From: a virus
Length of the DNA: 64,000 bases
Reading direction: 5' to 3' (one strand)
Virus record (IMG/VR): IMGVR_UViG_3300023502_000001
Location: 35,960 to 99,959 of that record
Part shown: piece by piece, positions 3,186-59,866 of the stretch
Numbering within the stretch: the stretch's first letter is position 1
Layout of the letters: each line of letters begins with the position of its first letter
Notes under the pieces: model-generated
Databases searched by the model: none
What the model was told of the DNA's origin: nothing
The model's input: the letters and a program-made list of their open reading frames with translations, nothing else
Made by a program: the position numbers and the translations under genes

Positions 3186-3988
3186 ACATCTATTACTGTT
3201 AAGTTATTATTACTAGGCTGATATTCATAATCACAGTATGAATTAGTTATCGTAACATGGTCAAAATTGTTACACAACTTTTTCAAGCCTTCTATATTTA
3301 CAGCATGGCAAACTATAATCTCGAATCTATAGTTAGGATACTTTTCTTTAAGAACTTTAAGTTCTCCAAGGAATGTTCCTCCAGCATCGCACAAATCATC
3401 AATGAATACAAACGTAGAATAGTAACAATTTACATTTCTACCTATAGAGAATTCCTTGATTTTTCCAGTTTCTAAGTCTCTTGTCTTATTGAACACTAAA
3501 TGTCCCCATACCTTAGAGTACTCCCTGTATCTCTGATACGCTCCAGCATCAGGGAATACAACATTAGATTGTTGTGGTATATAGCTTCCATAATTCAATT
3601 CTTGACACCAACATCTAGAACCTAGAAGATTCTTTGCTCTGTTAGAGTGAGCCTCTAAAATACAGACTGAACGATAGTTCATTCCATTTAAGATATTGCA
3701 CACAATTTTCAGAGAAAATGGACGGTTAAAATCCATTACCCTATCCATACGCATAGACATTAGATAGGTAATAAATAAGTCCCACTCAATTTCTTGTCTG
3801 TCTAGAATATCGCCAACTTGAGCTAACAGAAACAATTCTTCGGCAGAAGTAATTCTACACATAACCTTTACCGAATCTTTCCTATCAAATTCGTCTGGAA
3901 AACTTATTTGAGGCTCTCCGTCAGGGAATGTAGTGAGGTCATACTTAATCTCACTTTCATCCCAATTAATTAAGTTTAATAATTTCAT
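3176..3988 (-). CDS. PRPP-synthetase-like pyrophosphokinase (Adps-like of NAD+ reconstitution pathway)
   Basis: 270 aa; Prs-like motifs FPDGE, VFPDAGAYQR and PRPP-binding loop FVFIDDLCDAGGTF; overlaps and is co-oriented with the NAMPT-like gene. Confidence 0.7.
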   Translation of the reverse strand: MKLLNLINWDESEIKYDLTTFPDGEPQISFPDEFDRKDSVKVMCRITSAEELFLLAQVGDILDRQEIEWDLFITYLMSMRMDRVMDFNRPFSLKIVCNILNGMNYRSVCILEAHSNRAKNLLGSRCWCQELNYGSYIPQQSNVVFPDAGAYQRYREYSKVWGHLVFNKTRDLETGKIKEFSIGRNVNCYYSTFVFIDDLCDAGGTFLGELKVLKEKYPNYRFEIIVCHAVNIEGLKKLCNNFDHVTITNSYCDYEYQPSNNNLTVIDVCK

Positions 3989-11908: not shown

Positions 11909-12823
11909 TTACTTAGAAGAAGGATCGCCTTGTTTCTTAATCTCTTCGAAGATTCCTAGGAGATTCTTTGGCAAGGTAATTTTTAACTGTGAAATCCGCT
12001 CCTTTTCGGAGGTCTTCCAATTATTAAAGCGGCTTCTTAATTCTTGTATCTTAGAATTATATCTCTCATAATCAGCCTTAAATTCTGCAAGTCTTTCCTG
12101 ATATTCCTCTTCTCTAGTCATATCAATCTTATTTACAGTCTCTTTAAGTTCAGCTTTAAGAGCGTTTAATTCTTTCTCGTAGGAACGGTATATGTCTTGG
12201 AGAGACATAAACATATCATCTACCTTACTTACACTAATAGTAGGGTCTTGGTAATAGAGAATTAAATCTCTACCAGATCCTTCCTTATAGATAGGACAAT
12301 TCTCAGCGGCATGGACATCCTTTCTAGCCTTACTGAAAGCCCCTTTAGGATGGATATATTTACCATAAGTAGAAGCAAACGCTTCAAGTCTTAGATACTT
12401 GTTTCGCTTATTGCCGTCCCAAGAATCTATAACTTCCTTCTCTTCTGCTCTCCGCAGAGATTCCGGATACTCAGGTTGTTCGGGGATTTCTATGCCGTTT
12501 TCCTTAGCCCATTTCTCAATAGAAGTAGCGGCAAGATAAGAAATCATCTCCTCTTTCTTTTTGATAGCTTCTCGTACCCAAGCACAGAAACTATTCATTT
12601 CAGCACATTTTTCCAAATCGTTCTTAATGAAGCCTATGGAAGTTTGCCCTACAGTCATTAGCTGTTTTTCTCCACCTCCAATAGAGGCTACAGATACTTG
12701 GTAAAACTTCACACCATTTAGACGCTCTGTGGCAGCCTGAATCATTTCCTGCGCAATATTAGCATAATAGTTAGCAGATGTGGAAGTTAACCCTTCGTTT
12801 CCAAAAAATACACTTTCTTTCAT
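11909..12823 (-). CDS. hypothetical protein
   Basis: 304-aa ORF. Confidence 0.65.
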   Translation of the reverse strand: MKESVFFGNEGLTSTSANYYANIAQEMIQAATERLNGVKFYQVSVASIGGGEKQLMTVGQTSIGFIKNDLEKCAEMNSFCAWVREAIKKKEEMISYLAATSIEKWAKENGIEIPEQPEYPESLRRAEEKEVIDSWDGNKRNKYLRLEAFASTYGKYIHPKGAFSKARKDVHAAENCPIYKEGSGRDLILYYQDPTISVSKVDDMFMSLQDIYRSYEKELNALKAELKETVNKIDMTREEEYQERLAEFKADYERYNSKIQELRSRFNNWKTSEKERISQLKITLPKNLLGIFEEIKKQGDPSSK

Positions 12824-13000
12824 TTTGTTAATTTATCAATTACGTTTACTATAGACTGTTCTCCAGCTATAAAGCCAGACTTATGAGCATTTCTAATAAG
12901 TTTTTTCAAACTTTCTAGCTCTTCTTTTGATTTAAGAGTATTACTATTGTATATCTCTTCAAGTTCCTGTATATATCTTTCCATGACTAAAAATATTTAG

Positions 13001-13749
13001 TACCCGAAGTGGCATTACTCTGGAAGTATGCCGTACTTCCATATGTAGCCATAAGCATGGGTTATTTTATGATTGCAACAATCGGTGATATGTCTTTTGC
13101 AATTAACAGTTTTTGCTAGACCATTATCTACAAGCCATTGAGCTGCTTCTTCTCTTCCCCAGAAGTGCTATATATAATTGCCAGCCATATCAAATTGATC
13201 AATTTTCTTAGCAGACCCACCTCTGATTTTAATGTCATGAGCTTTCAATACTTTTCTTACAGTATCATCACTACATCCCACTTTCTCCGCAACTTTTTTG
13301 CAAGTATATCCCATATTGTACAGTTCGATTATCTCTTGATAATCATATAACTATGTTCCGTCACCACCCTTAGTAGCATTATAGCCTTTGGAGCCATAAG
13401 TTTCCAACTCTTTTATCCAATATACCTCTCTTTCTGAAAGTATGTTTTCGTCCTTTACATATTCTAATTCCTCTACTATAAAGTTTTCAACTCCATATTT
13501 ATTCATAGCATCATATAATGGACGTTTTTCACATCTTTCTTTTCGAGAATCCTTGCAGTGTTCCTAAAATCTTTCCTATATAGTAAAGAGGGTTTTACCA
13601 ACGTATCTTTTATTGTTGATAATATTTGTAATGCAATAGATATATCCCATATCATAAACTATTTATAACATTATTAATAATTGATTGAATTAGCTTTACC
13701 CAAAACACACCACGTGGAGGTTTCAATCTTGTGTTTCTACCCGAAGTGG
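13001..13749 (-). mobile_element. GIY-YIG homing-endonuclease cassette flanked by 12-nt direct repeats (tacccgaagtgg) derived from a tRNA 3' end
   Basis: direct repeats at 13001-13012 and 13738-13749; a 3'-fragment of a tRNA (T-arm GTGGGTTCGAGTCCCAC plus acceptor) at about 13735-13790; motif cacaccacgtggaggtt shared with the second cassette. Confidence 0.5.
13015..13650 (-). CDS. GIY-YIG homing endonuclease (TAG-recoded)
   Basis: hand translation of minus strand gives MGYIYCITNIINNKRYVGKT...KRFQEH...NKYG (GIY-YIG motifs), 211 aa, with 4 in-frame TAG codons. Paralogous to 25854..26429; invisible to standard-code ORF calling. Confidence 0.7.
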
Positions 13750-13791
13750 GACTCGAACCCACACGCCCGCAATGGGCATCAAATACATCTG

Positions 13792-13876
13792 TGACACAGA
13801 AGGGAATCGAACCCTCAATCCCATAAAGGGCAACGCATTTTAAGTGCGTTTCGTATACCAGTTCCGACACTGTGCC
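13792..13876 (-). tRNA. tRNA-Leu(TAA)
   Basis: hand fold: acceptor GGCACAG/CTGTGTC, anticodon stem ACGCA/TGCGT, loop CTTAAAA, long variable arm, T-loop GGTTCGATTCC. Confidence 0.65.
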
Positions 13877-13882
13877 ATCCTA

Positions 13883-14377
13883 TTATTTACCTATGTTCTT
13901 GCCACGGTAGTTATCAGTAAAAGCATGACAATTTGGACAGAGTAGTTGTAAATTCTCTATTCTCAAATCATCCTTAATACCATTTACATGATGTAATTCT
14001 AGAGCAATAGGTTTACCCATCCACTCTGTATTACCACAACATTCACATTTGTACTCTTTCACACATTCCTTTAACAATCTGTCTTTTAAATGATAGGTAC
14101 TTCTATAGGAAGAGTGCTCTATTAAAATAGATTCTAACGATTGTGCTTCCTTTATAGGTTTATATCTATCTCCTTGATTCCAAGCTTGTCCAGTCATGTG
14201 AGATGTATCTAAGTTAAGTTCACTAATCTTACGCTTTACAGTTTCATAGTTACTGCCAGCAGGTTTAAGTCCTAACTTTCTCATTACTTCTGCATGAGAT
14301 AGGCTAGTCTTTACTGCTTCAATGAATTGTTCGTCTGTCCATTTTCTCTTACTCATCCTTGTATATTTAATACACAA
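13883..14377 (-). CDS. HNH endonuclease
   Basis: 164 aa; C-terminal HNH motif ...LELHHVNGIKDD...LCPNCH. Confidence 0.7.
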   Translation of the reverse strand: MCIKYTRMSKRKWTDEQFIEAVKTSLSHAEVMRKLGLKPAGSNYETVKRKISELNLDTSHMTGQAWNQGDRYKPIKEAQSLESILIEHSSYRSTYHLKDRLLKECVKEYKCECCGNTEWMGKPIALELHHVNGIKDDLRIENLQLLCPNCHAFTDNYRGKNIGK

Positions 14378-14575
14378 AGATAGTAATTAAATTTGAGTCT
14401 ACCTAATTCATTAAGTTAAAATTTGTGAACGCCTGACGCGTCTACCAATTTCGCCATTCGGGCATAATGACAGCTATTCTCACGAACCACTGTCGAGAAT
14501 AATCCTAATTATTTATTTCTTACTAGATTAGTCTCTAAATTGTTAAATTCAAAGTTAAAATCCGTTAAGAAATGT

Positions 14576-20938: not shown

Positions 20939-21490
20939 TTACTCCAGACTAATTAAACCCTTCTCTAACATAATATGGTGATTCGGACATAACCATACTA
21001 AATTATTCTCGTTGTTAATCTCCTTAATAAGAGTGTCTTCGTCAAATTCTAATATTCCTTTAAGATGATGTACTTCAAGTATTGCATCAAATTCATGATT
21101 ATGACAATATTGACATACTTTCTCACGTTCGGAACTTTCTAATACTCTACGAGCATTAGTCCTTATTTCTTGACATTTAGATGATAAGTACTTCTGCCCA
21201 GATGTATAATAACCTAATGTTTTGTTACCAATTCCATTAAGTTCTTCCCAGCAACTACGACACATTTCTGAATCTTTATGCTTAGGTTTACCACATCTAG
21301 GACATATCTTGTTTTCATCGTGCTTTATCCTACCTCTATTATTGTAAGAAGCAGCACACGAATGACTACAAAACTGTTTCTTCCTCACATCTGCGACCCT
21401 CTGATTATCTAGTACTTCGATTACCTTACCACATTCCTTACAGTGGTTAGGATTCTCATAATACAATTTAAGAGATTGTTCTCGATTCAC
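20939..21490 (-). CDS. HNH endonuclease
   Basis: 183 aa; zinc-binding CxxC pairs and HNH motif ...EVHHLKG...NLVWLCPNHH. Confidence 0.7.
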   Translation of the reverse strand: MNREQSLKLYYENPNHCKECGKVIEVLDNQRVADVRKKQFCSHSCAASYNNRGRIKHDENKICPRCGKPKHKDSEMCRSCWEELNGIGNKTLGYYTSGQKYLSSKCQEIRTNARRVLESSEREKVCQYCHNHEFDAILEVHHLKGILEFDEDTLIKEINNENNLVWLCPNHHIMLEKGLISLE

Positions 21491-21701: not shown

Positions 21702-21707
21702 ATTATG

Positions 21708-22269
21708 TGGACCTAACGGGAGTCGAACCCGTGTCCAAACAACCCTCGTTACAAGGATAACGTGCGTCTCATTTTTATTATATCAGCTAGGGAGTTCTAG
21801 CATTTAGGTAGTTTTATAAGTCTTACAAGAGTCCATACTAAGTATTTCTCTAGATGCTTATCTACAAGCTACCAAACTATAGGGCTGACCGAAGTCAACG
21901 TTCCACCACTCCATTTACGTTGGAGAACGGGATGATACTTTAGAGATTCGTCACATCTCACGGAACACATCTTCCATCTGTTTTATGACATAGGAGATTC
22001 AGTCTTACTAACTCTTAGAGTGTTCTGATTAAGAGCATATTACTAGGATTAGAGCCTAGCTCTCCATTATATCAATATACTCAACCTCTTCTGTTTCTAG
22101 GTCTCTCCCGTAACCCGACTTAGTTAATAGTGTCTACCAACAAGCCAGCAGCTTAGGCTGCCATTCTTACTTCGCTATAAGCAGCATTTATTGTTTTTTC
22201 TTCGTTTAAAGAGATTGCGCTCTACACGTCCTTATAATTTGTAATCGCCTGTCAAATCCAAGTAGGCCC
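21708..22269 (-). ncRNA. ssrA: tmRNA (ssrA)-like
   Basis: 3' end GGACACGGGTTCGACTCCCGTTAGGTCCA closely parallels the E. coli tmRNA 3' end; 5' end GGGCCTACTTGGATTTGACAGGCG parallels GGGGCUGAUUCUGGAUUCGACGGG; acceptor GGGCCUA/UAGGUCC pairs with a G3-U70 (Ala identity); a possible tag ORF ends ...MAA-TAA. About 560 nt, longer than typical. Confidence 0.6.
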
Positions 22270-24154: not shown

Positions 24155-24227
24155 TGGACACGCAGGGACTCGAACCCTATCTTCCGGTGTGCAAAACCAG
24201 CGCTCTAGCCATTTGAGCTAACGGCCC
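24155..24227 (-). tRNA. tRNA-Ala(TGC)-like (weak acceptor stem but G3-U70 present)
   Basis: D-arm GCTCAAATGGCTAGAGC, anticodon stem CTGGT/ACCGG, loop TTTGCAC; acceptor GGGCCGT vs CGTGTCC pairs only 4/7. Confidence 0.45.
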
Positions 24228-25536: not shown

Positions 25537-25780
25537 CATATTATTTCCTCCCAGACATCTGTAAGTACCCCATTGGTACTTACCTTTTAATGATATTTTT
25601 ACTCTTGTCCTCTGTATGGAGGAGGTATTGTTCCAGACACTAACCAAGTGTAGTTCTTAGAACTCTGTTCAAAATACCATTTAGCAGCTTTCTTTACAAC
25701 ATTAATTACTTTCTTCATAACATTAAAGTTTAAAATTGTTAATAATTAATCTAATAACAGAGCCACAAAAGGAGTTTAGT

Positions 25781-26529
25781 TGCGGAGGTAGGATTATTTC
25801 CAAATAAATTTATATGCAGTTTTCAATTTCCCTTTTACACATAAACTAATCTTCTAGCGAACACCTCCATTATAAGTTTTAGCATAGCCATTGTCTACTA
25901 ACCAGTGTGCAGCATCGGCTATACTGTTCCAAGTCCTGATAAAGTTATTATTTAAATCATACTGAGATATTGATACAGGTTGCTTGCAACTTCCCAAATA
26001 AAATTTGTTCTTTGGTATATTGTTTATATTTATTACTTTAGAAACTGTATCAACAGAACATTGCATTTTGGCGGAAACTTCAATCATTGTCATTCCGCTA
26101 GTATATAAAGATATTATTTCTTTATAATCGAATAAGATAGCTCCATCGCCTCCCATAGTAGCATTATAGCCATTTGAGTATGTGTCTAGCTTATCTATAA
26201 ATTGAATTTCATAAGAAGCTAATTCCTCATCATCACATTCATACAGCTACTCAACTATGAAATTCTCAACCCCGTACTTATTCATAGCATCATATAGCGG
26301 CCTCTTTTCACATCTTTCCTTCTTGCAATCATTACAATGTTCTTTAAATCTCTTAGTTACAGAATAAGTAGTTTTTCCAACATACTATTTTCCATTAATT
26401 AAATTTGTAATACAATAAATATATCCCATGTTCTATTCTTATTTAAAATTAAACATATTAGTAAGATTAGCGTTATCCAACTCACACCACGTGGAGGTTC
26501 TTACTTGCGAGTCTTGCGGAGGTAGGATT
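25781..26529 (-). mobile_element. GIY-YIG homing-endonuclease cassette flanked by 16-nt direct repeats (ttgcggaggtaggatt) matching the 3' end of the adjacent tRNA
   Basis: direct repeats at 25781-25796 and 26514-26529; shares cacaccacgtggaggtt with the cassette at 13.0-13.75 kb. Confidence 0.5.
25854..26429 (-). CDS. GIY-YIG homing endonuclease (TAG-recoded)
   Basis: track ORF 25854..26156 extends upstream through 2 in-frame TAGs to MGYIYCITNLINGKQYVGKT...KRFKEH...NKYG (GIY-YIG motifs); about 191 aa. Confidence 0.7.
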
Positions 26530-26593
26530 CGAACCGTTTATGACGATTTCTAGGTTATGAGCCTAGCGAGATGACCAACTTCTCTACTCCACT
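26514..26593 (-). tRNA. tRNA-Met/Ile2(CAT)-like, imperfect
   Basis: acceptor AGTGGAG/CTCCGCA (1-72 A/A mismatch), D-stem GAGA/TCTC, anticodon stem CTAGG/CCTAG, loop CTCATAA, weak T-stem. Confidence 0.4.
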
Positions 26594-26599
26594 ATATTG

Positions 26600-26677: not shown

Positions 26678-26758
26678 TTCCGATTAAAGGATTTGAACCC
26701 CTGACCTCCCGCTGATGTTTTGGATGCGGACGCTCTAACCAGACTGAGCTAAATCGGA
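26678..26758 (-). tRNA. tRNA-Trp(CCA)-like with expanded 13-nt anticodon loop
   Basis: good acceptor TCCGATT/AATCGGA, D-arm TAGCTCAGTCTGGTTAGAGC and T-arm, but anticodon stem TCCGC/GCGGG encloses ATCCAAAACATCA. Confidence 0.35.
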
Positions 26759-33835: not shown

Positions 33836-33927
33836 GAGGAGGCAGTGGGACTCCAACCCACACATCGCTGTTACACGATTACTGGCAGTTTTCAAGACTG
33901 CTGCCTTAGCAATTAGGCTTATACCTC
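33836..33927 (-). tRNA. tRNA-Ser(TGA)
   Basis: acceptor GGAGGTA/TGCCTCC, anticodon stem GCAGT/ACTGC, loop CTTGAAA, long variable arm. Confidence 0.6.
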
Positions 33928-33929
33928 CA

Positions 33930-34322
33930 TTATAATGAAACCTTATATTTATCCCAATCACTGGTTAATGTCAAGGCTCCTTTAACATTTATTTCACTTG
34001 AGGGAATCTCATACATGTCCCCAGTTATAACTACTACAAATACTACATCACAAGTAGAATTATCAAAATGTCTAATCTTAGAATCTCCAGATGAACCTCC
34101 GCAATTCTTCAACAAGACTTCATAATTTCCACTCTTTACCTAATGTTGAGTAGTTTTAACTGATACTCTCTTCAAACCCTCTTTATCTACTACAATGTCA
34201 TATTTCTATGTATCATTCAAGGGAATTAGGACCGGAATGCAATGAGCAGTATAGTATGCTATAGCTCTTCCTAGTCCTAAATTCCCTTGATGAGATTTAT
34301 ACTAACTTTCCCAAGCGTTCAT
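33930..34322 (-). CDS. hypothetical protein (TAG-recoded)
   Basis: track ORF 33930..34115 extends upstream through 3 in-frame TAGs to MNAWES(Q)YKSH...; about 131 aa; fills a standard-code ORF gap. Confidence 0.5.
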
Positions 34323-43136: not shown

Positions 43137-43207
43137 TTCCCCATTCTGGACTCGAACCAGAATCTCCTTCTTTAGAGGAAGGCGCAATAGCATTATACTA
43201 ATGGGGA
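43137..43207 (-). tRNA. atypical tRNA-like gene (anticodon loop CTAAAGA, reads AAA), possible pseudogene
   Basis: acceptor TCCCCAT/ATGGGGA and T-arm TCTGGTTCGAGTCCAGA are good; D-arm weak; A34 is unusual. Confidence 0.3.
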
Positions 43208-43929
43208 AATCCTATCTTGACAACTAGTATAAGATAGGAGATTATTTAGTATGTTTTCCAGACATACAACGTTATCAACGTTCACTAAATTCTGAGGTAG
43301 CTAATCTCAAAACTTGCGAATAGATTCGAGATGGAAAATGACGCCTTATGAGCGTCTCTCTTACTATCTAGCCTATATCTATCTGATGGCTTACTTCAGG
43401 CAACTTCCAATATTGCATACGAATACTTATAGGTGATATACTTTGGTCTACCAGCATATCAGTGGTACTTTGTAATATTGCCATAAGTGACCATTCATAT
43501 GGCTCAATCCTCTTGTAATAGTGTTCAAGTTTGCGAATATACACATTACAATCGTAGCAGTTATTTTCGGATATTGGGTTCTTCTGCGTAACCCGCTTTT
43601 TGTTACCTTTTTATAGGCAAATGTTAGAGTAAATAATCATTGTAGTATGTGTTATAAAACTCATCCTACTGGCGATTTTTTGAGAACTGGAGAAAGTCGG
43701 AAAATCGGCTGTCTTTTGCGTGGACAATTTCTCTCAGCCCTTACCATATTTTCACGTGCAACAATAGTCCCAATCTACATTAGAACCACATTACTTAATA
43801 TAATACTAAAATAAAATAACTACGACGAATTGATTTTGAAGTTTTTGTTTTGTTTTGTTGTTTTCTCCGTTAACCAATGGTCCGATGATGGAGTTCATGT
43901 GGGTATCTTATTTTGAAACCCATAATACC

Positions 43930-45598: not shown

Positions 45599-45670
45599 TG
45601 CCCTATGGTGTAATGGTCAGCACAGATGACTCTAAATCATTTAGTCTGGGTTCGAATCCTAGTAGGGCAA
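45599..45670 (+). tRNA. suppressor tRNA, anticodon CTA (reads TAG), Gln-derived
   Basis: hand fold: acceptor TGCCCTA/TAGGGCA, discriminator A, D-arm GTGTAATGGTCAGCAC, anticodon stem GATGA/TCATT, loop CTCTAAA (C34 T35 A36), T-arm CTGGGTTCGAATCCTAG; near-identical architecture to tRNA-Gln(TTG) at 30395..30466. Confidence 0.75.
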
Positions 45671-45687
45671 CTCCAAAATTAATAGCT

Positions 45688-49768: not shown

Positions 49769-49979
49769 TGAGAAAGTTTATTTCAAACCTGGGGATTGTG
49801 TTACTTTACGGTAGTGTAAGGTAATGCATTCTCCAGTAATGCTTGTTCTGAGAAGAGAATCAGCATTATTTAAAGATAACCAGGGATTGCGCGGACTTAG
49901 ATGTAGATGGTTTACTGATTCTGGACTGATGCAAGAAGCAGTATTTAATACAAAAGACTTAATTAAAGTAGAAGAATAA

Positions 49980-51193
49980 TGGCGAAAATACAATTTGATC
50001 CAGAGTTAATGTAGCATATCAAGACTATATATGGAGACGCAGAGTTAGACGGAAGAACTTTACAACAGTTGCATTAGACTTGGCAAAGTAATCCGAACTC
50101 TATTAGAAATACTGCATAGTAGAAGAAAAGAAGTGCTGTGCCAGCTATACAACAAAAACCTATATTAGGATTAAAGCTGTCTACTCCTACTATTCCTAAA
50201 AAAATAAATGCACCTTAGCAACAAATTCAAAACGACGACTTAAGAGGAGTCTAGGGGTTTGGTACGGCATTTAGAGAAGCCAGAAAGAGAGGACTAACTC
50301 AATTCAAATGGGGGAAAGGAGTGTATGGAACATAGTTAGCTAATGGAAAGAAAGCAACAGTAGAGGTAGGAACTCCAGTAATGAATAATCCCTATGTTAC
50401 ATATAGTCAAGACGGAAAAAGAGCTACTACGTACCAAAATCAAGTAGACTAGGAAACTGGAGAGCATACTGGAACTATCCAAGAACAATGGATAAAGCCG
50501 CCTACAACTAATATGTATGGGCAGAAACTAACTCCAGAATAGCTCAAAAATTAGAGAAGTTGGGAACATATACCAAAGGCAACTGCTAGATAGCAACGAG
50601 TTAAATATCAACAAGGAGGAGCAATGGCTAATTAGGAAGAATTACAAAAAGCATTTATGGCATACTTAATACAGGATGCCGCAGCACAAGGAATACAATT
50701 ACAATCTGAGTAGGATTTAGAACAATATGCTCAGCAATTAGGAGAAGACGGAATTAAAGCCAAATACCAGGAATTTATGCAAAAAATGCAAGGTGGGGTT
50801 ATGGCTAGATTAGGAGCTAAGCTTGAGTACTATAAAAAATTAAAAGGAGTTTGCCCAGAAGGGGAAGAGCTTGTTTATTTTAAACAAGGAGGGAGAATAT
50901 GTAAAGCCTGCCAGAAAGCTTAGAAAGGTGCCAAGGTAAAAGGTAACGAGGTAGACAAATTTAAGAAAGGAAGAGCACAGTATAAGAAAGATATGAAATC
51001 AGCGAAAGATGAAGCTTCTAGAGATTCTATATCTATTAATAAGTATAATGATTAGGAAACCATGTCTAATAAAGGACATAAAGGAAACTTCCAAAAGGGA
51101 AAATGGGTTCCTGATAGAAAGCAATATACTAAAAAGGATGCTTGTGGCTCTAAAATGAAAGTAAGCAAGTGTGGCTCTAAAATGAAGAAGTAA
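49980..51193 (+). CDS. Gln-rich hypothetical protein (TAG-recoded)
   Basis: about 404 codons open when TAG is sense (about 17 in-frame TAGs), terminated by TAA; MAKIQFDPELM(Q)HIKTIYGD... Confidence 0.6.
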
Positions 51194-51226
51194 GAAAAGA
51201 TTGTCGAATGTTAATGATTAATGATT

Positions 51227-51817
51227 ATGAATGTATTTAACTATAACACTTTAACTAAATAGTTAGAAATAAATGAACCAGAGATTCTTCTAGTTAAAGA
51301 GTTCAAAGCTTTACTACAAAGAGATAAATCTGTGGAAAAGGATAGAGCAATTAGAGAACTATCATACATTTATTTAGCTATTGATTGGAAGAGTCCGTAT
51401 AGCTAGTACTCTGAATATGAAAGGCACGATGAAGCAATTAATGATTCTGGATTAACAGAATCAGAATTTAATGATCCGATATTTAGGGAAGCATGTAGAA
51501 AATATAGAGCATTATAGGACTCAAATAAATCAATTAAATTATTAGAAGCTGCTAGAAGAGCTGCTGACTAGTTTATTGATTACTTCGATACTATTGTAGA
51601 CTTAAATGAACGTGACACTAATGGAAAGCCAGTATTCTCTGCTGAGAAAGTAATGAAGGAAATGGCTAGCCTTCATAAAGTTCACGAAGAATTAATTACA
51701 TTAGAAGATGAGGTTAAAAAAGAACTTACTGAATAGTCTACCGTTAGAGGAGGGGCTACAGATGGTTTTGATCCCGGAGAATTTTAATTATGCCAAGAAA
51801 GAAAAAGATATTACCTG
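51227..51817 (+). CDS. hypothetical protein, possible terminase small subunit by position (TAG-recoded)
   Basis: about 196 codons, 4 in-frame TAGs, ends TGA; directly precedes the terminase large subunit. Confidence 0.45.
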
Positions 51818-54150
51818 ATGAACTATAGACTATAGTAGATTAGGTAAGAGAAAAAGAACATAAAGAAGATGCTGTAGAGGCAAGAGAGCTAGTATAGAAA
51901 ATAAGAGAAGAAAGGGTCAAAAGTGCAGACTATTGGGATGTCAAGAAAGGAGACAAGATAGATGTTTTTGACCCTACTTTGTCTTATGAGATAACTGGCT
52001 ATAGACCTATTGATGAAACGCATGGTTTGGACTTTAATCCCGAATGGTTCACCGAAACCAGAGAAGTATACAGAAAGACTGGGAAGTATTGTCCCTACTT
52101 AAAAGACAGTAAGAGATACAATGAATTTTGGAAAGAGTAGTACAGAAGATGTAAATATGGAATGACAGTTAATGGTTATACTATTACTGGAGATAACTAT
52201 TTCTTCTTAAATTTCTATTAGCTTCCTATTATTGATGATAATAAAGCATCCGGTGAAGGAACTAATAGTGACTTCCCTATATTCTTTGCATCCCATTACA
52301 TGTTCTTCCATTACTTACAAATGGCTAGAGTACTACATAGACATGCAGCTTTAATGAAGGCTCGTTCAATCGGATTCTCAGAAATAAATGCCTCACTATC
52401 CGCTCGTATGTATTCTGTAATTAGAAGAAGTAGAGTAATGATTACTTGCTTTAATGATACCTTCCTTAAAGGTACATTTAGTAAGTTTGATAATGCTCTA
52501 ACATTTTTAAATACTTGCACAGGTGGAGGATTCTTTAAGCTTCGTCTAATTGACCAGGATTTAAGAAAGAAGTCTGGTAAGTAGGTTAAAGTAAACGGAT
52601 AGTTTGAAGATGTTGGATTTAAATCAGAAGTAGTAGGAATAAATGGAGCTAAACCATCTAATATTCGTGGAGACCGTGTTGACTTATTAATATATGATGA
52701 AGCAGGGTCTTGGCCAGGATTAGATACTGCTGTGGTACAAGGACAAGAACTTTGTGAAGTCTAGGGTAAGCCTCGTGGAACAATGTTGTTTGGAGGTACT
52801 GGTGGTGATATGGGTGCTCCATTAGCAGGTCTTAAAAAGATTTACTATAATCCAAAAGCTTACAAAGTTCTTCCCTTTAGACATAATTATACTCAAGATG
52901 GGACTACTATTGAGAGTGGATTCTTTATTCCATATTTTGTACAGTCTTTGAACTCCGAATACATGGATCATAGAGGTGTATGTAATACCGTAGAATATAA
53001 GAAGTATCTGTAGGAAGAAAGAGATAATCTATTAGCAGTACCCGATGACTATTTAAAGAAGTGTGCTGAACGTTGTTGGAATGCAGAAGAGGCCTTCAAT
53101 CTAGAAGGTGTTAACAAGTTTAACAAAATTCTTATTTCTGATCAATTAGCTAATATAAGACTAAAGAAAATAGGTCCCAGACCAGAATGTGGTTATATAG
53201 ATTACTTCTATAAAAATAATAAACACACTGCTGATAACATTGATGGATTTAAGTGGATTCCTAATACTAAGGGAAAGGTAAAGATTCTGGAACATCCAGT
53301 ATGGTCTGACCTATATAAGGAGTAGATGGATAAACTTAGATAGGAAGCAGAGGAAAGAGGAGAGGAATTTGAAGCACCTGTATATAAAGAAATGCATAAT
53401 CTTTATATTGCAGGAATAGACGGTATTGATATAGGAGCTAATTAGACCTCAAAGGAAACTAAAGATCCTTCTGACTTCTGTATAACTATTAAGAGAAGGG
53501 CATTTGGTATGAGTGAGCCATAGTATGTAGCAATGTATAAGGACAGACCTGGAGACATTCGAGAGGCTTACAAAATAGCTATGTGTTTACTTAGATACTA
53601 CAACTGTAAGGTAAATATAGAAGCAACCCGTGTTGGTATGATTACCTGGGCTAGAGAAAAGAAATGTTTGAATTACTTTATGAAACGTCCTAGAGCTACT
53701 CTTACTGATGTTAAAAATGGAACTACTAAATAGTATGGAACTCCAGCTACTAAAACTATTATAGAACAACACACTGATCTAACTGCTGCGTTTGTGGAAG
53801 ATTATTGTCATACTATATGGTTTGAAGAAATGTTGGAATAGCTTACTGGATATAATGACGAGAATAAAGGTAAGTTCGATATTATAGCAGCTATGGGTAT
53901 GACAGAATTAGCAGATGAAGAGTTGTCTGGAAGATAGCCTATAGTTGTGGAAAAAGAAGTTGAATTGTTCAGGGATTTTGGTTATTATTACGATGAGAGA
54001 GGAATAAAAAGATTTGGAGTTATACCAACTAGCGAAACTCCAGAATTAAATATGCAAGACGACGAATACGATGACCCATACAGAATTGAAACAAGTGATC
54101 CTAGAGTATATGAGAGACTTATACCAAATGGAATATATAGGCGGACTTGA
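51790..54150 (+). CDS. terL: terminase large subunit (TAG-recoded)
   Basis: about 786 codons in one frame joining track ORFs 52300..52584, 52783..53013, 53533..53733 and 53947..54150 through in-frame TAGs; ATPase-like RGDRVDLLIYDEAGSW and nuclease-like LYIAGIDGIDIG / DIIAAMGM segments. Confidence 0.6.
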
Positions 54151-54347
54151 GATTGAGGATTTGAATCCAGTTGGTTACAAAATATCTTTTAACTTTGACA
54201 GGTCTGAGATGCCATTAGTAATCATAGCTGATTTACCCGATGATGAATTTCTGCCTTTTATTAAAGAAGAATTAAGAAGTAGGAAGTTATAGAGAGTTAA
54301 GTATTATAACGCCACTAAGCTTCCTCCAGAACAACATAATACATGTT

Positions 54348-56519
54348 ATGAAAGAGAAAGAATTGATAGACAAAACAAACGAGGCTATTGCGGAACTTGT
54401 GTATGATAAATATGAGCTTTAGAAAGCTTATAATTATTATAATGGTAAAAGAGATCCAGAATAGTTTCGCTATCTTGAAGAGAATTTTGGAATAGGCAGT
54501 CCTACATCAGTAGAATTTACACCACTACTTAAGAAGCATGTAGATGCTTTAGTAGGGGAATATCTAGGAACTCCAATACTCCCGAAAGTCTCTTGCAAAG
54601 ATTCAGATACTATCAGTAATATAACCAGAGAAAAATAGCTAGAGATAACTAAAGGAATAGTTAAGTTTTTAAAAGATCACTTAAGTAATGCTATCTTAAG
54701 CTTTATTGACGGAAAAGATATTACTGATAAAGCTGTAAAGACTCAGCTAGATAAGGTTATATAGGATATTGATTAGTCATTCATTTCTCAGTATGAAATT
54801 GCTGCGCAGAACATTATTCACTACCTAATGCAATCTAGGGAAACTGATCTTATTACTAAGTTGCGGTAGTTATTAACTGACTTACTAATTACTGGATACA
54901 CATTCTTTAGAGTAAAGTCTTCTTTCTCCGGAACTAATGTGGAGATAGAGGTTCTTAACCCGTTAAATACGTTTGTTGATAGAAATCCAGAATCTCCATA
55001 TGTCAAGAAATCATATAGAGTTGTTATTAGAAAATGGATGAGTAAAAGCCAAATACTAGCTAAGTATGGTAAAGAAATATCTAGAGAAGACTTAAAGAGG
55101 TTAAAAGATGAATGGAGAGCAGATGATTCTGCTGCTGTATACAGAAGAGTTTATGGAGATGTTTGTACAGTGGTTAATGAAGATCAAAATCATGAGACCA
55201 TTCCTGGGTATCCAGATAATGAATATAGTGCTCATAGATTTTAGTTAATTCCGGTCTACGATGTAGAGTGGATAGAGACTGATGATGATTTCAAAATGCA
55301 GAGATACAATACTATAAGGATAGGAGAGGAAATCTATATTCTTAGAGGATTAGACAAGACTGCAATGAGGTCTAAAGACGATCCTAACTCTTGTTCATTA
55401 TCAGTAAATGGAGTTTATTTTCTAAATCGTTCTCAGTAGCCATATTCTTTAATACTTAAGTGTGCACATCTACAGGATAGATATGACTTACTTAACTACT
55501 ACAGAGACAACTTGATAGCTAATAGTGGAACCTCAGGAGTTATTATGGATATGTCATTACTTCCTACTAACTTAGGAGTGCATTGGCCAGAAAGAGTATA
55601 GAAATGGTTAGCTTATAAAAAGGGTGGTATTATGTGGATTGATTCCACTTAGGAAGGAAGAAATGATGGAGCGCAGGCACCTAACTAGATATACAATGGA
55701 TTTGATGATACCCTTAAAGCGTAGGCTGTATAGGCTATTGAGTTAGCTATTCAATCAGTAGAATAGACTACATCATCTATAACTGGAGTATTTAGGGAAA
55801 GACTTAATGGAATAGAGACTCATGATGCTGTAACTAATATTAAGCAAGGAGTAGCTAATTCTTATATAGTAACTAAACACTACTTCCAACAAATGGATTT
55901 AATAACTTGTGAGATATTGTTGGATAGTCTTAATCAGGCTAAAGTAACTTACAAGAAAGGATTAACTGGAACCATTATATTAGGAGACAAGTATTAGCAG
56001 ATATTTACTGCACTTCCTGAATATTTCACAATGACTGATTTTGATATTCATATAACCTCTAGCACTGAAGTTATGGAAGATCTATAGACTATTAAAGCTA
56101 TGATTCCAGAGTTCCTTAAGAGTTAGTAGATGGATGCTGGTATAGTTTTTGAAGCATTAACAGCTAAGAGTTTAACAGACTTAAAGTATAAGGTTAAGAA
56201 AGCTATGTAGGTTTAGAAGGAAGAGAACAATCAATTACAATAGTTGTAGCAGAAGTTGGAGGAAACTTCATAGCAAGCACAACAATTACAATAGGAATTA
56301 GAAAAAGCTTAGTAGAAAATAGAGAGGTTAGATGAACAAAAACTTGGACTAGAGCAATAGAAAATGCAACTCGAATACAAGGTTAATTGGCTTAAAGCCC
56401 AATCAGATTCTACTTATAAAGATAGACAAATGGATATTGAAGAGAAGAGAACTGAAATAGAATTAGCATAGCTTCATGATGGAAATCCATATAACGATAA
56501 AATAAGACAAATACATTAA
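54348..56519 (+). CDS. portal protein (putative, by size and position; TAG-recoded)
   Basis: about 723 codons in the frame of track ORF 54939..55244, many in-frame TAGs, ends TAA; follows terL. Confidence 0.45.
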
Positions 56520-56520
56520 T

Positions 56521-57390
56521 ATGGCTACAGCAGGTACAATAGTATATAATAAAGATTAGCAACAAATATATCCAGTTTCTCATGCAGAGGTGGTAATTAG
56601 TAATGCTTCTGGAAGTAAGTCAGACGTGGAAGACAACCTTATAAAATTATGGAAAAAGGTCTCAGAATTAAGTGGAGACTAGGAAGCAGCTAGTAATATC
56701 ATGGTAGTAGTTACTTATTGTAAAACAAATACCAGAGATGAATCTGAAGTAAGAAAGTTATCATCATGGAGTGATATTTTTGAACTACCAGACTCAGAAA
56801 GACCATATGTTTGGAAGAAAACTTTATATACATATAAAGGAGACACAGCTAAACTTAATGAGATTTACGAAATTGTTGCTACAGATATTGCTGAAAAAAT
56901 TCAGAATATCTATATTGCAAGATCAACTGGGGTTGCTCCAGTTATTACTTATCCAATACTAACGGATGGATATGGAGATCCTATATTAGACTCTGAAGGA
57001 AATACTTAGGAAGATTTGACTGCTTTTGATAAAAAATTACCAGAAGGCTGGTCAGAAACTCCAGTTAGTATTGGTCCAGCTACTCCATATGTATTTATAT
57101 CAACACGTAAGAGAGTAGAAGGATTATGGAAAAGATATTCTGAACCAGCTCAATACGGTAGGTGGGCATTCGACAGTTAGTTAGAGTTACGATATACTAT
57201 TACTTCTGGAGATAAACCAGCTGTTAATACTACAAGTGATGATCCAGGAAGTTAGTGGTCTAGTGATACTCCAGATAGTTTTACTGGAAAAATGTGGATG
57301 ATTACTGCAACATCAGTAAATGGAGTATTGAATAGTGATGAAAACAACGTTAGATGGCATGGTCCTCATTTGATGTCAATTATACAATAA
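56521..57390 (+). CDS. virion-associated hypothetical protein (TAG-recoded)
   Basis: about 289 codons incl. track ORF 56701..57009; stop overlaps next start (TAATG). Confidence 0.5.
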
Positions 57391-58121
57391 TGGAATTTAG
57401 TATTGATATACATACCCAGATTACTGGGGAAATAACTATTGAAGACTTCTCTAAGGAATATGGATAGTATATTGATGAAGATTTAGAAGTAGTAACCTCT
57501 TACGACTCTTATAAGTACAGTGAGAGTGCTACTCTAAATACTATCATCAAGGTAAGTATAGGAGATGCCACATTAATAGATGTCCTTTTAAATGACCATA
57601 CAGAAGATTTAGATTCCTGTACATTTAAAGTAAAAGAGGACGGATATTATGTGGTAGATCATATAATACTTCCTAATATGAAGTGGTATGAAAATTCATC
57701 TGATGAATATAAGGAATACTACGAAACTATCTATGTTACAGATGGGGAGAAACTATATAAAGAAGTAGAAGGAGAGTTAGAAGAGTGTACAGTAAAGGAA
57801 ATTCTAGAAAGAAACATAGAAGGCACTACTATCAAGAAATGTAAGGTCGATGTATTCTTTACTGGGAATTTACAATAGTGCTATATTAATTATTGTAAAA
57901 AATTATTTGATGGTCTCCTAAATAAATGTGTTACCAATGAACATGAGGCAGATATTTTTGCTAGAGATTTTATTTGGATGACTCTCAACATTATAGATTA
58001 TTTAATAGGCTTTAAACAATTCATGGAAGCCGAAAGATTGCTAGCAATGTTCCGCACTTGTGGAGGATTCTGTAACACTCGCTATCATGGACATAAACAT
58101 ATAAGTTGTGGATGCTCTTAA
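57390..58121 (+). CDS. hypothetical protein (TAG-recoded)
   Basis: about 243 codons incl. track ORF 57651..57878; C-terminal Cys/His-rich tail. Confidence 0.5.
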
Positions 58122-58276
58122 AAGAAAGGCTATTAAAAGGTACGAAGAGTTTCTTGGAAGAATTAAGAAAGGATATAGACCAGATTATCAAGATATTTTG
58201 AATTTAATCTGTTTTATTAATCTACCTGTAAAACTAGATAATCACGAATTTATTAAATAGCAACTATTAAATCATA

Positions 58277-59866
58277 ATGATACAGCCTATTTACACTTCG
58301 GTAAGCAATGCTGATATAAAGCCTTGTGGAAAGAAAGGACATTTAATAAAAAGTGAGCCTATACCACTTCTAAGAGATAATTACTTAGGAGAATATAGAA
58401 CAGAACTAGAAAGAGCTAAGGTTAGAAAAAACTTAGGAATTGCTGATGAGTAGAGTCTTCTTTGGGGAAATATTAGTGGAACCATAGAGGCTTAGAAAGA
58501 CTTGGTTTAGTATATTGAACAAAAATGGACATATACTAGCGATGTTGCAGAAAATATTAACACCGTAAAAGATGCATTAGACTATGCATTATTTTTTATT
58601 AGTTAGTATGAGGCTAATACTGAGGAAATAGAAGAGATAAAGGTTGATATAAGTAATATTAGGACTAGTATTTAGGTATTAGGAGAAGATCTGAAAAGAG
58701 AGATTGATACTAATAGGGAAGGACTAAATAACTTATCTTAGGATATAATCGAAATTAATTAGGCAATATCAGACCTCAACACTGCTATAGAAAATATAGA
58801 TGTTGATAAGAACATTCTTAATTGGATTAAAAACAACCTTTAGAACTCTAAGACTGTAGAGATAAAGGAGGATAATACTATAGAAGTCATTCTTTCTAAG
58901 TAGGATAATAATGCTATTCATTTAATCGAATAGGAATTACCTCCTACAGAAGAAGGAGAGGAGCCTTCTACTATAACCCTTCCAGGAATTTATGTAAAGA
59001 ATCTAGAACCTTAGTTAGAAGAAGCTTAGAAATCTATAGGAGAAGTATAGAAAGCTCAAGAAGAGACTAATGAAAAGGTTAGCACTAATAGCGAGAGTAT
59101 TACAAATATCTAGACTAGTCTAGAAACTATAGCTACCTATTAGACAGAACTTCCTGATGATACAACTTCTACTGTTATAGAAGGTACTACCGTTGAAAAA
59201 TTAAAAGGGAAACCATTTAATGAAATCATAGATACTTTACTATTCCCAACAGTAGTTAGAGATTTAATATATCCATAGTTGTATTATAGCTTTGCTTCCC
59301 AAATTGTGGAAGTAGGAACTGCGCTACTAACTCCAACCTTAACTTTCGTAAAAAATGATGCAGGAGAAGAAACTGACAGAGAAGAAGTCATTACTTATAA
59401 CGGTTCTCCTATAGAGTCTGTTACATATGATTCTATTGGGATTTATACTCATTCTGGTACAGTGAATTATGCTGCTGGAGAATACTTAGTAAACAATAAG
59501 GGAGAAGTTACAGATAAAAGGGTGGAAGCTGGTTCTATATCAGCAACTGCACAAGTAACAGCTACTTATCCTTGGTATTCTGGAAATACTGATGGATTGA
59601 TAAAATAGTCCCTAGTTCCATTTAATTAGGCTTCTGGCACTATTACATTCTCATTAAGTGGTAAGGCTATTATAAAATTACCAGGAAGTAATACTCAGCT
59701 AAATTCCTTCACAGTAGATGGAGGATTGGGATATTTGAATGTCGATTTAAATGGTTGGGAAGCTTCTACTGAACAAATAAATGGATTCCCATATAAAGTA
59801 TGGACTAAGAAGGATACCTACTCTTCAGCACTGCCTCACCAAATTAACTTTATTCTATCACAGTAA
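58277..59866 (+). CDS. tail fibre-like protein (coiled-coil N-terminus; TAG-recoded)
   Basis: about 529 codons incl. track ORF 59279..59608; extended Q/E/L-rich heptad region then beta-rich C-terminus. Confidence 0.5.

Follow-up and report, generated by a model that had tools for sequence, protein, structure and literature searches.

A predicted theta ribozyme travels with a recoded GIY-YIG homing endonuclease gene at the 3' ends of phage tRNA genes

Three modes of persistence are known for homing endonuclease genes (HEGs), which reside in self-splicing introns, in inteins, or in intergenic regions as free-standing genes. Enzymes of the GIY-YIG/I-TevI type work through double-strand-break repair, and the classic group I intron site of tRNA-Leu(UAA) lies between U34 and A35 of the anticodon. 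Outside the phage world, the 5' HDV-like ribozyme of the R2 retrotransposon and GIR1 of the twin-ribozyme introns cut at the 5' junction of their elements and so free the mRNA of the element from the host RNA. Maturation of tRNA 3' ends is tolerant to what follows them, since RNase Z normally accepts arbitrary trailers. In phage T4 the GIY-YIG enzyme SegB recognises the T-loop sequence GGTTCRANTCC and cuts near the tRNA 3' end (PMC2330249; PMC13096335). The theta ribozymes (Kienbeck et al. 2024, PMC10879173) are HDV-like ribozymes of phages whose likely hosts are Bacteroidota, and Mg2+-dependent self-scission, abolished by a C to U change of the catalytic C, was demonstrated in vitro for four of them, all distinct from those treated here. 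A recoded HEG located in an intron of an early gene has been regarded as a delay device (Borges et al.).

The window, that is, the whole stretch of 64,000 nucleotides of viral DNA analysed, contains a mobile unit of 737 nt (13001-13737) inserted next to an A-type tRNA-Leu(UAA), at its 3' end. Read along the minus strand it comprises a predicted theta ribozyme, a GIY-YIG HEG and a 12-nt copy of the tRNA 3' terminus. A sister unit, copy 2 (25780-26513), is located at tRNA-Met. The features of both loci are the following.

13001..13012, minus strand: distal repeat of 12 nt from the tRNA-Leu 3' terminus (minus-strand sequence CCACTTCGGGTA), separated from the HEG stop codon by 2 nt
13015..13650, minus strand: GIY-YIG HEG of 211 aa with 4 in-frame TAG (codons 25, 29, 99 and 161); stop codon TAA at 13015-13017
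13651..13682, minus strand: AT-rich leader of 32 nt, from the ribozyme to the HEG start codon
13683..13737, minus strand: predicted minimal HDV-like (theta) ribozyme of 55 nt; G1, the predicted cleavage site, at 13737
13738..13790, minus strand: dead tRNA remnant, the 3' exon of the A-type tRNA-Leu(UAA) with variable arm, T-arm, acceptor 3' strand and discriminator
13791..13876, minus strand: intact B-type tRNA-Leu(UAA), which accompanies the HNH ORF in the position of the group I intron core of relatives
13883..14356, minus strand: HNH endonuclease ORF of 157 aa without TAG, 79% identical to the HNH ORF in the tRNA-Leu group I intron of L045 and L047
14433..14463, minus strand: what remains of the 5' exon of the A-type tRNA-Leu(UAA), acceptor 5' strand through anticodon stem, with a degenerate anticodon loop
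25780..25795, minus strand: distal repeat of copy 2, 16 nt from the tRNA-Met 3' terminus (AATCCTACCTCCGCAA), which shares 2 nt with the HEG stop codon
25794..26429, minus strand: GIY-YIG HEG of copy 2, 211 aa with 3 TAG, 54% identical to that of copy 1
26460..26513, minus strand: predicted theta ribozyme of copy 2; G1 at 26513, directly past tRNA-Met (26514-26594)

The arrangement combines traits of several described systems. As in the theta ribozymes, whose cleavage site lies within 5 nt of a phage tRNA 3' end, the predicted site directly adjoins such an end, and tRNA-Leu and tRNA-Met of TAG-recoded gut phages serve as partners; the core also follows the order P1-J-P2-ACC-T-CC-ACGT-GGT-P1'-GG-..-CTAA-P2' with a minimal P4. 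The ribozyme differs from them in being the cargo of a mobile HEG cassette and in its absence from cassette-free alleles. The main text of that publication (PMC10879173) makes no mention of endonuclease, homing or GIY, and the pairing of a theta ribozyme with a mobile endonuclease was not found in the literature searched. T4 SegB is likewise a free-standing GIY-YIG HEG located directly downstream of a tRNA in a phage tRNA cluster and has a tRNA gene as its target, but it lacks the ribozyme, the duplicated tRNA 3' end and the recoded codons. With R2 and GIR1 the cassette shares the insertion of a mobile element in a structural RNA gene, co-transcription, and a dedicated ribozyme at the 5' junction, whose cleavage is here predicted; those are eukaryotic retroelements and introns, in contrast to a phage cassette homing at the DNA level, and here the same predicted cut would also make the tRNA 3' end. 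With the HEGs of group I introns it shares a catalytic domain that aligns to that of I-TevI and an RNA catalyst that, as we propose for the cassette, renders the insertion harmless. In relatives, this same tRNA-Leu is interrupted between U34 and A35 by a genuine group I intron that contains an HNH ORF. However, the GIY-YIG cassette is not part of an intron, it does not interrupt the tRNA, and its RNA would be cleaved instead of spliced. Finally, it differs from the tRNA islands of integrases and transposases in having no recombinase gene and no repeats of fixed length.

The initial annotation had read positions 13015-13650 as a GIY-YIG ORF of about 211 aa with four in-frame TAG codons, and the translation, Pfam and the match to I-TevI bear this out. 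The ORF, the sole plausible coding ORF of the 737-nt insert, matches the Pfam GIY-YIG domain PF01541 (E 1.3e-11) and, with its N-terminal domain, the I-TevI catalytic domain 1MK0/1LN0 (E 6.5e-9), with GYIY, YVG, ERF..EH, ERE and GYN kept in the alignment and thereby the conserved Tyr, Tyr-x-Gly, Arg, His, Glu and Asn positions of the family. A separate C-terminal DNA-binding region is marked by HTH_28/HTH_7 at residues 103-137 (Pfam), and the product is predicted to be a nuclease of the GIY-YIG/I-TevI type. With T4 SegB the similarity, 36% identity over 96 aa, is confined to the GIY-YIG catalytic domain. Aligned with the ORF of the second cassette, as the annotation had suggested, the two 211-aa products prove related, and the C-terminal half of the HEG diverges between the Leu and the Met cassettes. 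Inspection by eye of the distal repeat and the HEG 3' end in copies 1 and 2 revealed no conserved structure. The use of TAG as a sense codon within the cassette is likewise sustained by the homologous cassettes found, each of which carries 1-5 in-frame TAG. The minus-strand neighbours are nearly TAG-free, and late plus-strand genes contain 5-28.

A conserved 17-mer just upstream of the start codon, CACACCACGTGGAGGTT, had been reported as shared with the second cassette. It is shared (13706-13722 and 26483-26499 only; 0.03 expected), but instead of being merely an upstream motif it appears to be the catalytic core of an HDV-like theta ribozyme, in which positions 13706-13722 run from the terminal part of the 5' strand of P2 through P3/L3 into the 3' strand of P1, of which they include the first four bases. 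G1 is located at 13737 and 26513, directly past the discriminator base of the tRNA (A 13738 for copy 1), and the predicted catalytic C, the first position of J4/2, is 13693. At Rfam gathering thresholds no ribozyme was detected in the whole window. The HDV-type match emerged only in a small E-value scan, in which RF02682 was matched over its full length with 28.7 bits (E 4.9e-4), below the gathering score of 44 of a model that expects a full P4; P4 is reduced here, and no dedicated theta model was found among the Rfam matches. Perfect pairing of P1 and P2 occurred in 110 of 148 core matches versus 24 of 2960 after shuffling. The covariation score was 0.555 against 0.160 (0 of 500 shuffles as high), with compensatory changes in 13 of the 14 P1 and P2 pairs, in a set that was pre-filtered for perfect pairing, a bias which the shuffle control offsets only partly. 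In the alignment, 94% of the cells were paired in P1, 70% in P2, 100% in P3 and 93% in P1.1, in agreement with a nested double pseudoknot, and the C of GCTAA was invariant in all 43 aligned ribozymes. The same parse of the core is found in the theta-ribozyme supplement and in the published descriptor output (PMC10879173); the exact sequences of the two window ribozymes are not among the supplement entries examined. Positions 13683-13737 are therefore described as a predicted minimal HDV-like theta ribozyme, its fold backed by covariation and its self-cleavage predicted. The class is not exclusive to HEG cassettes. Both ribozymes of the window lie within HEG cassettes, and the notion that every ribozyme with this core is HEG-linked was rejected, a recognisable HEG being present downstream of only about 17 of the 81 unique ribozymes with the core and missing from those adjacent to suppressor tRNAs.

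That the tRNA 3' end harbours a mobile cassette with a GIY-YIG homing endonuclease, as proposed, was upheld by precise empty and filled junctions in near-isogenic genomes, and the clean tRNA locus that the annotation expected in relatives exists at both sites in related gut phages of about 185 kb. In 28 related loci the tRNA-Leu passes directly into the trailer (...CCCACTTCGGGTA|CTA...), without ribozyme. Fifteen contigs contain the predicted empty site at tRNA-Met, the Leu cassette being present in two of them, and all 15 cassette-free Met alleles were devoid of ribozyme. In L001 the 260 nt on either side of the cassette show 100% identity to cassette-free L044 and L045. The flanks in L038 show the same identity to cassette-free L048 and L037, and so do those of copy 2 of the window, over 250 nt on either side, to cassette-free L080 and L073. 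The whole block, including the ribozyme, is present or absent as a unit with exact junctions in otherwise identical genomes, and since the empty sites have no ribozyme, the latter travels with the endonuclease gene. Across genomes the cassettes are 97-99.9% identical and their flanks 63-88%. The window differs from L001 at one position over 13001-13768, and over 12201-13000 identity is about 58-85% per 100-nt window, rising from about 70% to 100% exactly at 13001, and the distal 12-nt copy at 13001..13012 marks the outer edge of the mobile block. Three different trailers follow beyond an identical junction, starting within 3 nt of the distal repeat, and no downstream co-conversion was visible in the genome comparisons, the cassette-linked identity ending exactly at the outer edge of the repeat. 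Decayed copies were also observed, frameshifted in L038, truncated in L007 and mostly deleted in L043. The decayed allele of L043 and L023 has kept the ribozyme and lost the HEG, which indicates a route to HEG-less ribozymes.

The tRNA next to copy 1 has a history of its own. As had been described, positions 13738-13790 are the 3' part of a tRNA, with variable arm, T-arm and acceptor 3' strand, adjoining the tRNA-Leu(taa) at 13791-13876; positions 13738-13781 clearly match A-type alleles. Its interpretation as a product of the GIY-YIG cassette was not sustained. It is the orphaned 3' exon of a disrupted tRNA-Leu(UAA) with its 5' partner at 14433-14463, the removal of the cassette in silico, proposed as a check, yields no complete tRNA, and L001 has the same cassette behind an intact, uninterrupted tRNA-Leu. 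The idea that an HNH-plus-tRNA cassette simply replaced the 5' half was revised as well, because L045, L047 and L065 show a group I intron between U34 and A35, the site at which the tRNA-Leu(UAA) of relatives contains a group I intron with an HNH gene. Within positions 13700-14560 of the window no group I intron match was obtained. A separate HNH/intron-derived element split the A-type tRNA-Leu(UAA), and the B-type tRNA-Leu took the place of the intron core and probably the function; the tRNA served by copy 1 is already dead in the window. A single phage tRNA-Leu is thus heavily contested by a group I intron with HNH, a replacement tRNA and a ribozyme cassette.

The 12-nt repeat TACCCGAAGTGG, given in the initial annotation as the boundary of the insert, occurs at 13001-13012 and, inside the dead tRNA-Leu 3' exon, at 13738-13749 only (about 0.08 chance matches expected; at least two in 0 of 100 shuffles). 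The corresponding repeat that delimits copy 2, at 25780-25795 and 26514-26529, measures 16 nt. In general, a repeat of 12-16 nt just past the HEG stop codon reproduces the last nucleotides of the structured RNA and ends exactly at the predicted cleavage site. Its start falls in the T-loop or in the 3' strand of the T-stem in seven distinct ribozyme-endonuclease cassettes on six target sequences (eight cassettes with the degenerate L018), and its length is 12 nt at Leu (two ribozyme variants), 16, 16 and 13 nt at Met, 14 nt at Pro and 14 nt at a tRNA-like 3' end. Among 13 distinct GIY-YIG cassettes whose end could be scored, 5 lacked an exact repeat, which was degenerate in L018 and missing from L020b, L073, L143 and L184, where no repeat of at least 9 nt was detected; for this reason a repeat that is always duplicated was rejected and the repeat is not obligatory. 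Hence the duplication of the tRNA 3' terminus stands, and its reading as a fixed-length target-site duplication of transposon type does not, the repeat measuring 12-16 nt according to the tRNA and sometimes being absent. It may be a built-in homology arm or a footprint. As a homology arm, 12-16 nt is short. The cassette-free tRNA-Leu of L041 exhibits a 10-nt deletion of exactly the T-loop region, possibly a cleavage scar.

We consider it quite probable that ribozyme, HEG and tRNA end form one mobile unit that would operate as follows. The cassette, which has no recognised promoter of its own, would be transcribed together with the tRNA, and the ribozyme would cut its own 5' end exactly past the discriminator, generating a defined tRNA 3' end and an HEG mRNA with a 5'-OH. 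With the tRNA end so defined, the insertion would be nearly harmless to the tRNA, in the manner of a self-splicing intron; given the tolerance of RNase Z, the tRNA does not necessarily gain from the ribozyme. The TAG at codons 25 and 29, which flank the catalytic Arg, would block translation until the suppressor tRNA(CUA) of the phage is active, late in infection. The nuclease would then recognise the region from the T-arm to the trailer in cassette-free alleles of co-infecting phages, as T4 SegB recognises the T-loop, and cut in or near the T-loop. During repair, which would copy the cassette, the left end of the break would pair with the donor tRNA, and the right end, the last 12-16 nt of the tRNA, would anneal to the distal repeat. 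By virtue of this annealing, the homology that homing requires would be confined to the conserved tRNA, and the variable flanks would not have to match.

Other explanations were weighed against this unit. The ribozyme might be a resident element of tRNA maturation or recoding beside which a plain free-standing HEG landed, as the published role of theta ribozymes in tRNA maturation and the lack of a downstream HEG at most tRNA-adjacent ribozymes with the core, including those by suppressor tRNA(cta), would suggest. Nevertheless, 28 of 28 cassette-free tRNA-Leu and 15 of 15 tRNA-Met alleles of this phage lineage lack a ribozyme, the ribozyme is part of a 99.9%-identical block, among the roughly 29 tRNAs of the window only those beside the two HEG cassettes have a ribozyme, the suppressor tRNAs having none, and the allele of L043 and L023 keeps its ribozyme after HEG loss. 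This explanation is improbable in general, and for the two loci of the window it is already contradicted. An insertion by a transposase or integrase, with the 12-nt repeat as a target-site duplication or rebuilt att, has in its favour that the insert lies between direct repeats of the tRNA 3' end, an arrangement also seen in integrase-mediated tRNA islands; we regard it as very improbable, given that the 737-nt insert encodes a GIY-YIG ORF and no integrase or transposase, that it has no terminal inverted repeats, that the repeat varies with the tRNA (12, 13, 14 or 16 nt, or none), and that enzymes of this type employ double-strand-break repair.

The distal repeat could also be a functionless scar of a single founding illegitimate insertion in the T-arm, carried along passively by homing through flank homology. 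A break in the T-loop followed by one-ended copying and end joining would yield such a repeat automatically, some cassettes do without it, and its 12-16 nt are short for recombination. Yet independent repeats with the same geometry in seven cassettes on six target sequences, together with identity that stops at the outer edge of the repeat before three different trailers within 3 nt and the lack of visible downstream co-conversion, make a mere scar somewhat unlikely, although it retains a real chance. As for copy 1 of the window, it might be an inactive relic whose ribozyme and HEG lie idle beside a dead tRNA, of which only the 3' exon remnant is left upstream, and copies in L038, L007 and L043 have indeed decayed. 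This is rather unlikely: the ORF is intact and 1 nt away from the L001 copy, which follows an intact tRNA, every conserved ribozyme position is kept, and homing into other phages does not require a working local tRNA.

The mobile unit of ribozyme, HEG and tRNA end suggests a fourth way of persistence for HEGs, at the end of a structural RNA gene with a self-cleaving ribozyme that would part the host RNA from the endonuclease mRNA. It is conceivable, and we advance it tentatively as a little less than an even chance, that in gut phages a sizeable share of the theta ribozymes beside tRNAs do not serve housekeeping tRNA processing but are 5' modules of a family of selfish ribozyme and HEG cassettes at the 3' ends of RNA genes with a T-arm (tRNAs, and tmRNA in L020), in which the ribozyme silences the insertion, by cleavage where an intron would splice itself out, and the tRNA-end copy is a portable homology arm, HEG-less ribozymes often being remnants of HEG decay. 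Under the standard code, ORF callers split the HEG wherever it has a TAG codon, and this may be why the link has been overlooked. A concrete origin and role is offered for part of the theta ribozymes, for which only tRNA maturation and code switching have so far been considered. If the proposal is true, the cassette homes into any phage sharing the tRNA, whatever its flanks, and the homology arm, if functional, would explain the spread between phages with flanking genes only about 70% identical. Moreover, so compact a unit, with a 55-nt ribozyme, a recoded nuclease and an arm of 12-16 nt, could be a template for engineered phage gene drives.

The cassette of copy 1 (13001-13737) and its sister at tRNA-Met, copy 2 (25780-26513), each carry a GIY-YIG open reading frame:

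13015-13650, minus strand, GIY-YIG ORF of copy 1, 211 aa, four in-frame TAG codons
25794-26429, sister ORF of copy 2, three TAG codons, 54% identical to the copy 1 ORF

With TAG read as Gln, the copy 1 ORF matches the Pfam GIY-YIG model (E 1.3e-11), and its protein also matches PHROG homing-endonuclease families and, at residues 103-137, Pfam helix-turn-helix models. A further match is to the I-TevI catalytic domain of known structure (E 6.5e-9), and the alignment brings GYIY and YVG as well as the Arg, His, Glu and Asn positions into register. Translation and these matches confirm the endonuclease of about 211 aa with four in-frame TAG codons proposed in the initial annotation, and alignment of the two cassettes' ORFs showed that the second is also real.

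The proposal that the element is mobile was borne out for both copies by relatives with a clean tRNA locus and by near-identical cassettes in diverged flanks. In a gut-phage fragment from GenBank, MT836666 (locus L001), the cassette stands directly after an intact tRNA-Leu(taa), and 1 position differs from the window over 13001-13768. In the neighbouring gene (12201-13000), identity per 100-nt window drops to about 58-85%; the switch in identity falls exactly at 13001, the outer repeat edge. Among 41 related loci from IMG/VR phages of about 185 kb, fetched via the downstream 304-aa gene, 28 are clean: the A-type tRNA-Leu(taa) ends in ...CCCACTTCGGGTA, with CTA... immediately behind it and then the next small ORF, and both the endonuclease and the 17-mer that precedes it are absent at these 28 loci. 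The filled allele equals the empty site plus 737 nt, and three trailers (CTAAATATT, CTATAAAAT and CTAATTTAA) follow one identical junction. The 260-nt flanks of L001 are 100% identical to those of two cassette-free loci (L044 and L045), and the flanks of another filled locus, L038, to those of cassette-free L048 and L037. For copy 2, the empty site was predicted by deleting the cassette in silico and then searched for; it was found clean in 15 contigs, two of which carry the Leu cassette. The copy 2 flanks in the window are 100% identical to cassette-free alleles, and the cassette itself shares 99% identity with copies for which the upstream flank gives only 70%. Decayed copies also occur, frameshifted (L038, L003), truncated (L007) or mostly deleted (L043, L023). 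Invasion, decay and loss are the stages through which homing endonuclease genes usually pass, and the decayed copies fit this cycle.

The 17-mer just upstream of the start is common to both cassettes, as initially described, but it is more than a shared motif, being the core of a predicted ribozyme. Its only positions in the window are 13706 and 26483, and a scan of IMG/VR gave 29 loci, where it lies almost always 13-16 nt past a tRNA 3' end and often just ahead of a GIY-YIG ORF. The flanks covary as two helices in the order P1-5', P2-5', core, P1-3', linker, P2-3', which is that of a pseudoknot, and the core, ACC-T-CC-ACGT-GGT, is similar to HDV-ribozyme P3/L3. The Rfam model HDV-F-prausnitzii aligns over its full length to 13683-13737, with a reduced P4, at 28.7 bits (E 4.9e-4), below its gathering score of 44. 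A wider scan returned 148 core hits, 110 of them with perfect P1 (6-7 bp, G first) and P2 (at least 5 bp), compared with 24 of 2960 once the upstream 25 nt were shuffled. Across 43 aligned ribozymes, 86% of cells were paired versus 63% in shuffles, the covariation score was 0.555 versus 0.160 (0/500 shuffles as high), compensatory changes were present in 13 of the 14 P1 and P2 pairs, and the J4/2 cytosine was invariant. In their supplement, Kienbeck et al. 2024 (PMC10879173) parse theta ribozymes, minimal HDV-like ribozymes, with exactly the same core and layout. Because of the Rfam match, the pairing, the covariation and the published parse, 13683-13737 and 26460-26513 are predicted to be theta ribozymes. 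G1 of both directly follows the tRNA discriminator base. No ribozyme was found at the window's other tRNA genes (about 27, suppressor tRNAs included); the Rfam tRNA model gives two more tRNA-like genes, at 26678-26758 and 24155-24227 (minus strand), unreported by ARAGORN. Since the predicted ribozyme is absent from all empty sites of the lineage, forms part of a 99.9%-identical block and is confined, within the window, to the two cassettes, it travels with the endonuclease gene. In the tRNA-Leu alleles of L043 (3607-3900) and L023, the ribozyme and the first 30 GIY-YIG codons are kept and the remainder of the gene is replaced by an ORF with the motif FIDFYLPD..IEYNGKQH, which may be a different nuclease.

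The 12-nt direct repeats reported around copy 1 are real and beyond chance, the 12-mer TACCCGAAGTGG occurring in the window at 13001 and 13738 only (about 0.08 matches expected; two in 0/100 shuffles). Around copy 2, the tRNA-Met 3' end is repeated over 16 nt, at 25780 and 26514. In seven distinct cassettes with six distinct target sequences, the repeat consists of the 3'-terminal 12-16 nt of the tRNA or tRNA-like RNA upstream; the first copy stops exactly at the predicted ribozyme cleavage site, and the second starts 0-2 nt past the endonuclease stop codon.

Length of the tRNA-end repeat by target
tRNA-Leu (two ribozyme variants, L001 and L006), 12 nt
tRNA-Met (window copy 2, L011), 16 nt
tRNA-Met (L013), 16 nt
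tRNA-Met (L024), 13 nt
tRNA-Pro (L021), 14 nt
unassigned tRNA-like 3' end (L145), 14 nt

The repeat copy is degenerate in a further cassette (L018), and a search for a tRNA-end repeat found none of at least 9 nt in four others (L020b, L073, L143, L184). On the left, the repeat always begins within the T-loop's 3' part or among the first bases of the 3' strand of the T-stem. Identity linked to the cassette ends at the outer edge, differing trailers starting at most 3 nt beyond, and on the tRNA side the variable-arm variants differ among filled alleles and agree with each one's cassette-free partner. Hence, exchange has been limited to an interval reaching approximately from the T-arm at one end to the repeat at the other.

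We infer the activity of the ribozyme, the specificity of the nuclease and the role of the repeat. Alleles that lack the cassette would be cut by the nuclease in the T-loop or close to it; the right break end would start with the last 12-16 nt of the tRNA and could anneal to the distal repeat, and no homology beyond the tRNA would then be required for homing. It could just as well be that the repeat is no more than a scar left by the founding event. With regard to the proposed T-loop cut, T4 SegB, a GIY-YIG enzyme within a tRNA cluster, recognises GGTTCRANTCC (PMC2330249). In one cassette-free tRNA-Leu (L041, about 3771-3860), a 10-nt deletion (gggttcgagt) has taken out the T-loop together with the 5' strand of the T-stem, and ARAGORN calls no tRNA there. 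Such a deletion would be expected if a cut of this kind were misrepaired; this lone example is only suggestive.

The half-tRNA next to copy 1, initially ascribed to insertion of the GIY-YIG cassette, has another origin: it is the 3' exon of an A-type tRNA-Leu split as in three related loci (L045, 2901-3790; L047; L065). There the A-type tRNA-Leu(UAA) is interrupted exactly between U34 and A35 by an insert that ends in G. Within it lie an HNH ORF and the core of a group I intron, which matches Rfam RF00028 over the full length (41.8 bits, E 4.6e-9). This position is the classic site of cyanobacterial and plastid introns and is here occupied in a gut phage. The window contains:

14433-14463, remnant of the A-type tRNA 5' exon, upstream of the HNH ORF, anticodon loop degenerate
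13883-14356, minus strand, HNH ORF, 79% identical to the relatives' intron ORF
13791-13876, intact, different tRNA-Leu(UAA) of B-type, downstream of the HNH ORF in the intron core's place
13738-13790, old A-type 3' exon, after the B-type tRNA

With both exon remnants and the HNH ORF present and no intron core found, 13738-14463 is a degenerate derivative of the relatives' arrangement. The HNH and B-type pair recurs in L034/L035 (3408-3973) with a different right-hand junction; the B-type tRNA always lies 6-9 nt after the HNH ORF and two right-hand junctions are known, as if the HNH gene and the replacement tRNA moved together. Since the A-type tRNA was split and its 3' exon left over, copy 1 now stands behind a dead exon; it is still intact, 1 nt from the L001 copy behind a live tRNA. 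Nuclease genes are scattered throughout the tRNA array of the window. A small HNH ORF (20939-21265, minus strand, 108 aa, PF13391) lies beside tRNA-Asp/tRNA-Thr, and an ORF at 33930-34322 (minus strand, three in-frame TAG), whose first 60 aa match PD-(D/E)XK PF11645 (E 2.2e-6), adjoins tRNA-Ser(tga) at 33836-33928 and could be a further recoded, mobile nuclease gene beside a tRNA.

In-frame TAG is almost absent from the minus-strand genes of the early and tRNA region (1 to 45 kb) and numbers 5-28 in each plus-strand gene from 49979 (49979-63771); the ORF set treats TAG as sense, so that by construction no kept ORF ends in TAG and the set is uninformative on TAG as stop. The four and three TAG codons of the GIY-YIG genes fit the suggested spread among recoded phages. 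Codons 25 and 29 of copy 1, both TAG, flank the catalytic Arg, an arrangement that fits delayed, suppressor-tRNA-dependent translation; Borges et al. likewise proposed delayed translation for the recoded endonuclease of an intron within an early gene. A RAGATH-14 RNA (43236-43408, minus strand; Rfam 166 bits, above the gathering score) lies immediately upstream of a suppressor tRNA(cta) at 43137-43207, and a second tRNA(cta) is located at 45599-45671 (plus strand).

Forty of 81 unique ribozymes with this core adjoin a tRNA called by ARAGORN; for about 14 of the 81 a GIY-YIG ORF (xYIYCITN..., 1-5 TAG) lies no more than about 60 nt downstream, and at least 3 are followed by HNH ORFs. Many are without an endonuclease, among them those adjoining suppressor tRNA(cta), and the link is frequent, not universal. 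In a sister phage (L020, 6477-6536 and downstream) a theta ribozyme and a GIY-YIG ORF (216 aa, five TAG) follow the tRNA-like 3' end of the phage-encoded tmRNA, for which the window's tmRNA (21705-22269), with tRNA-Ile directly after, is the matching empty site.

A literature search gave no paper linking theta ribozymes with endonucleases or homing, of which the main text of Kienbeck et al. 2024 (PMC10879173) makes no mention. The parts are known: GIY-YIG homing endonucleases, theta and HDV-like ribozymes, tRNA-cluster endonucleases such as SegB, and recoded late genes. R2 elements in rRNA genes have an HDV-like ribozyme at their 5' junction, and twin-ribozyme introns carry the GIR1 ribozyme; by analogy, the cassette would resemble both in function. 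Unlike them, it is a DNA-level homing cassette of a phage, with a single predicted cut that would serve the tRNA and the endonuclease mRNA alike. The combination itself, in which ribozyme, endonuclease gene and spare tRNA end enter tRNA 3' ends as one unit, appears to be unreported.
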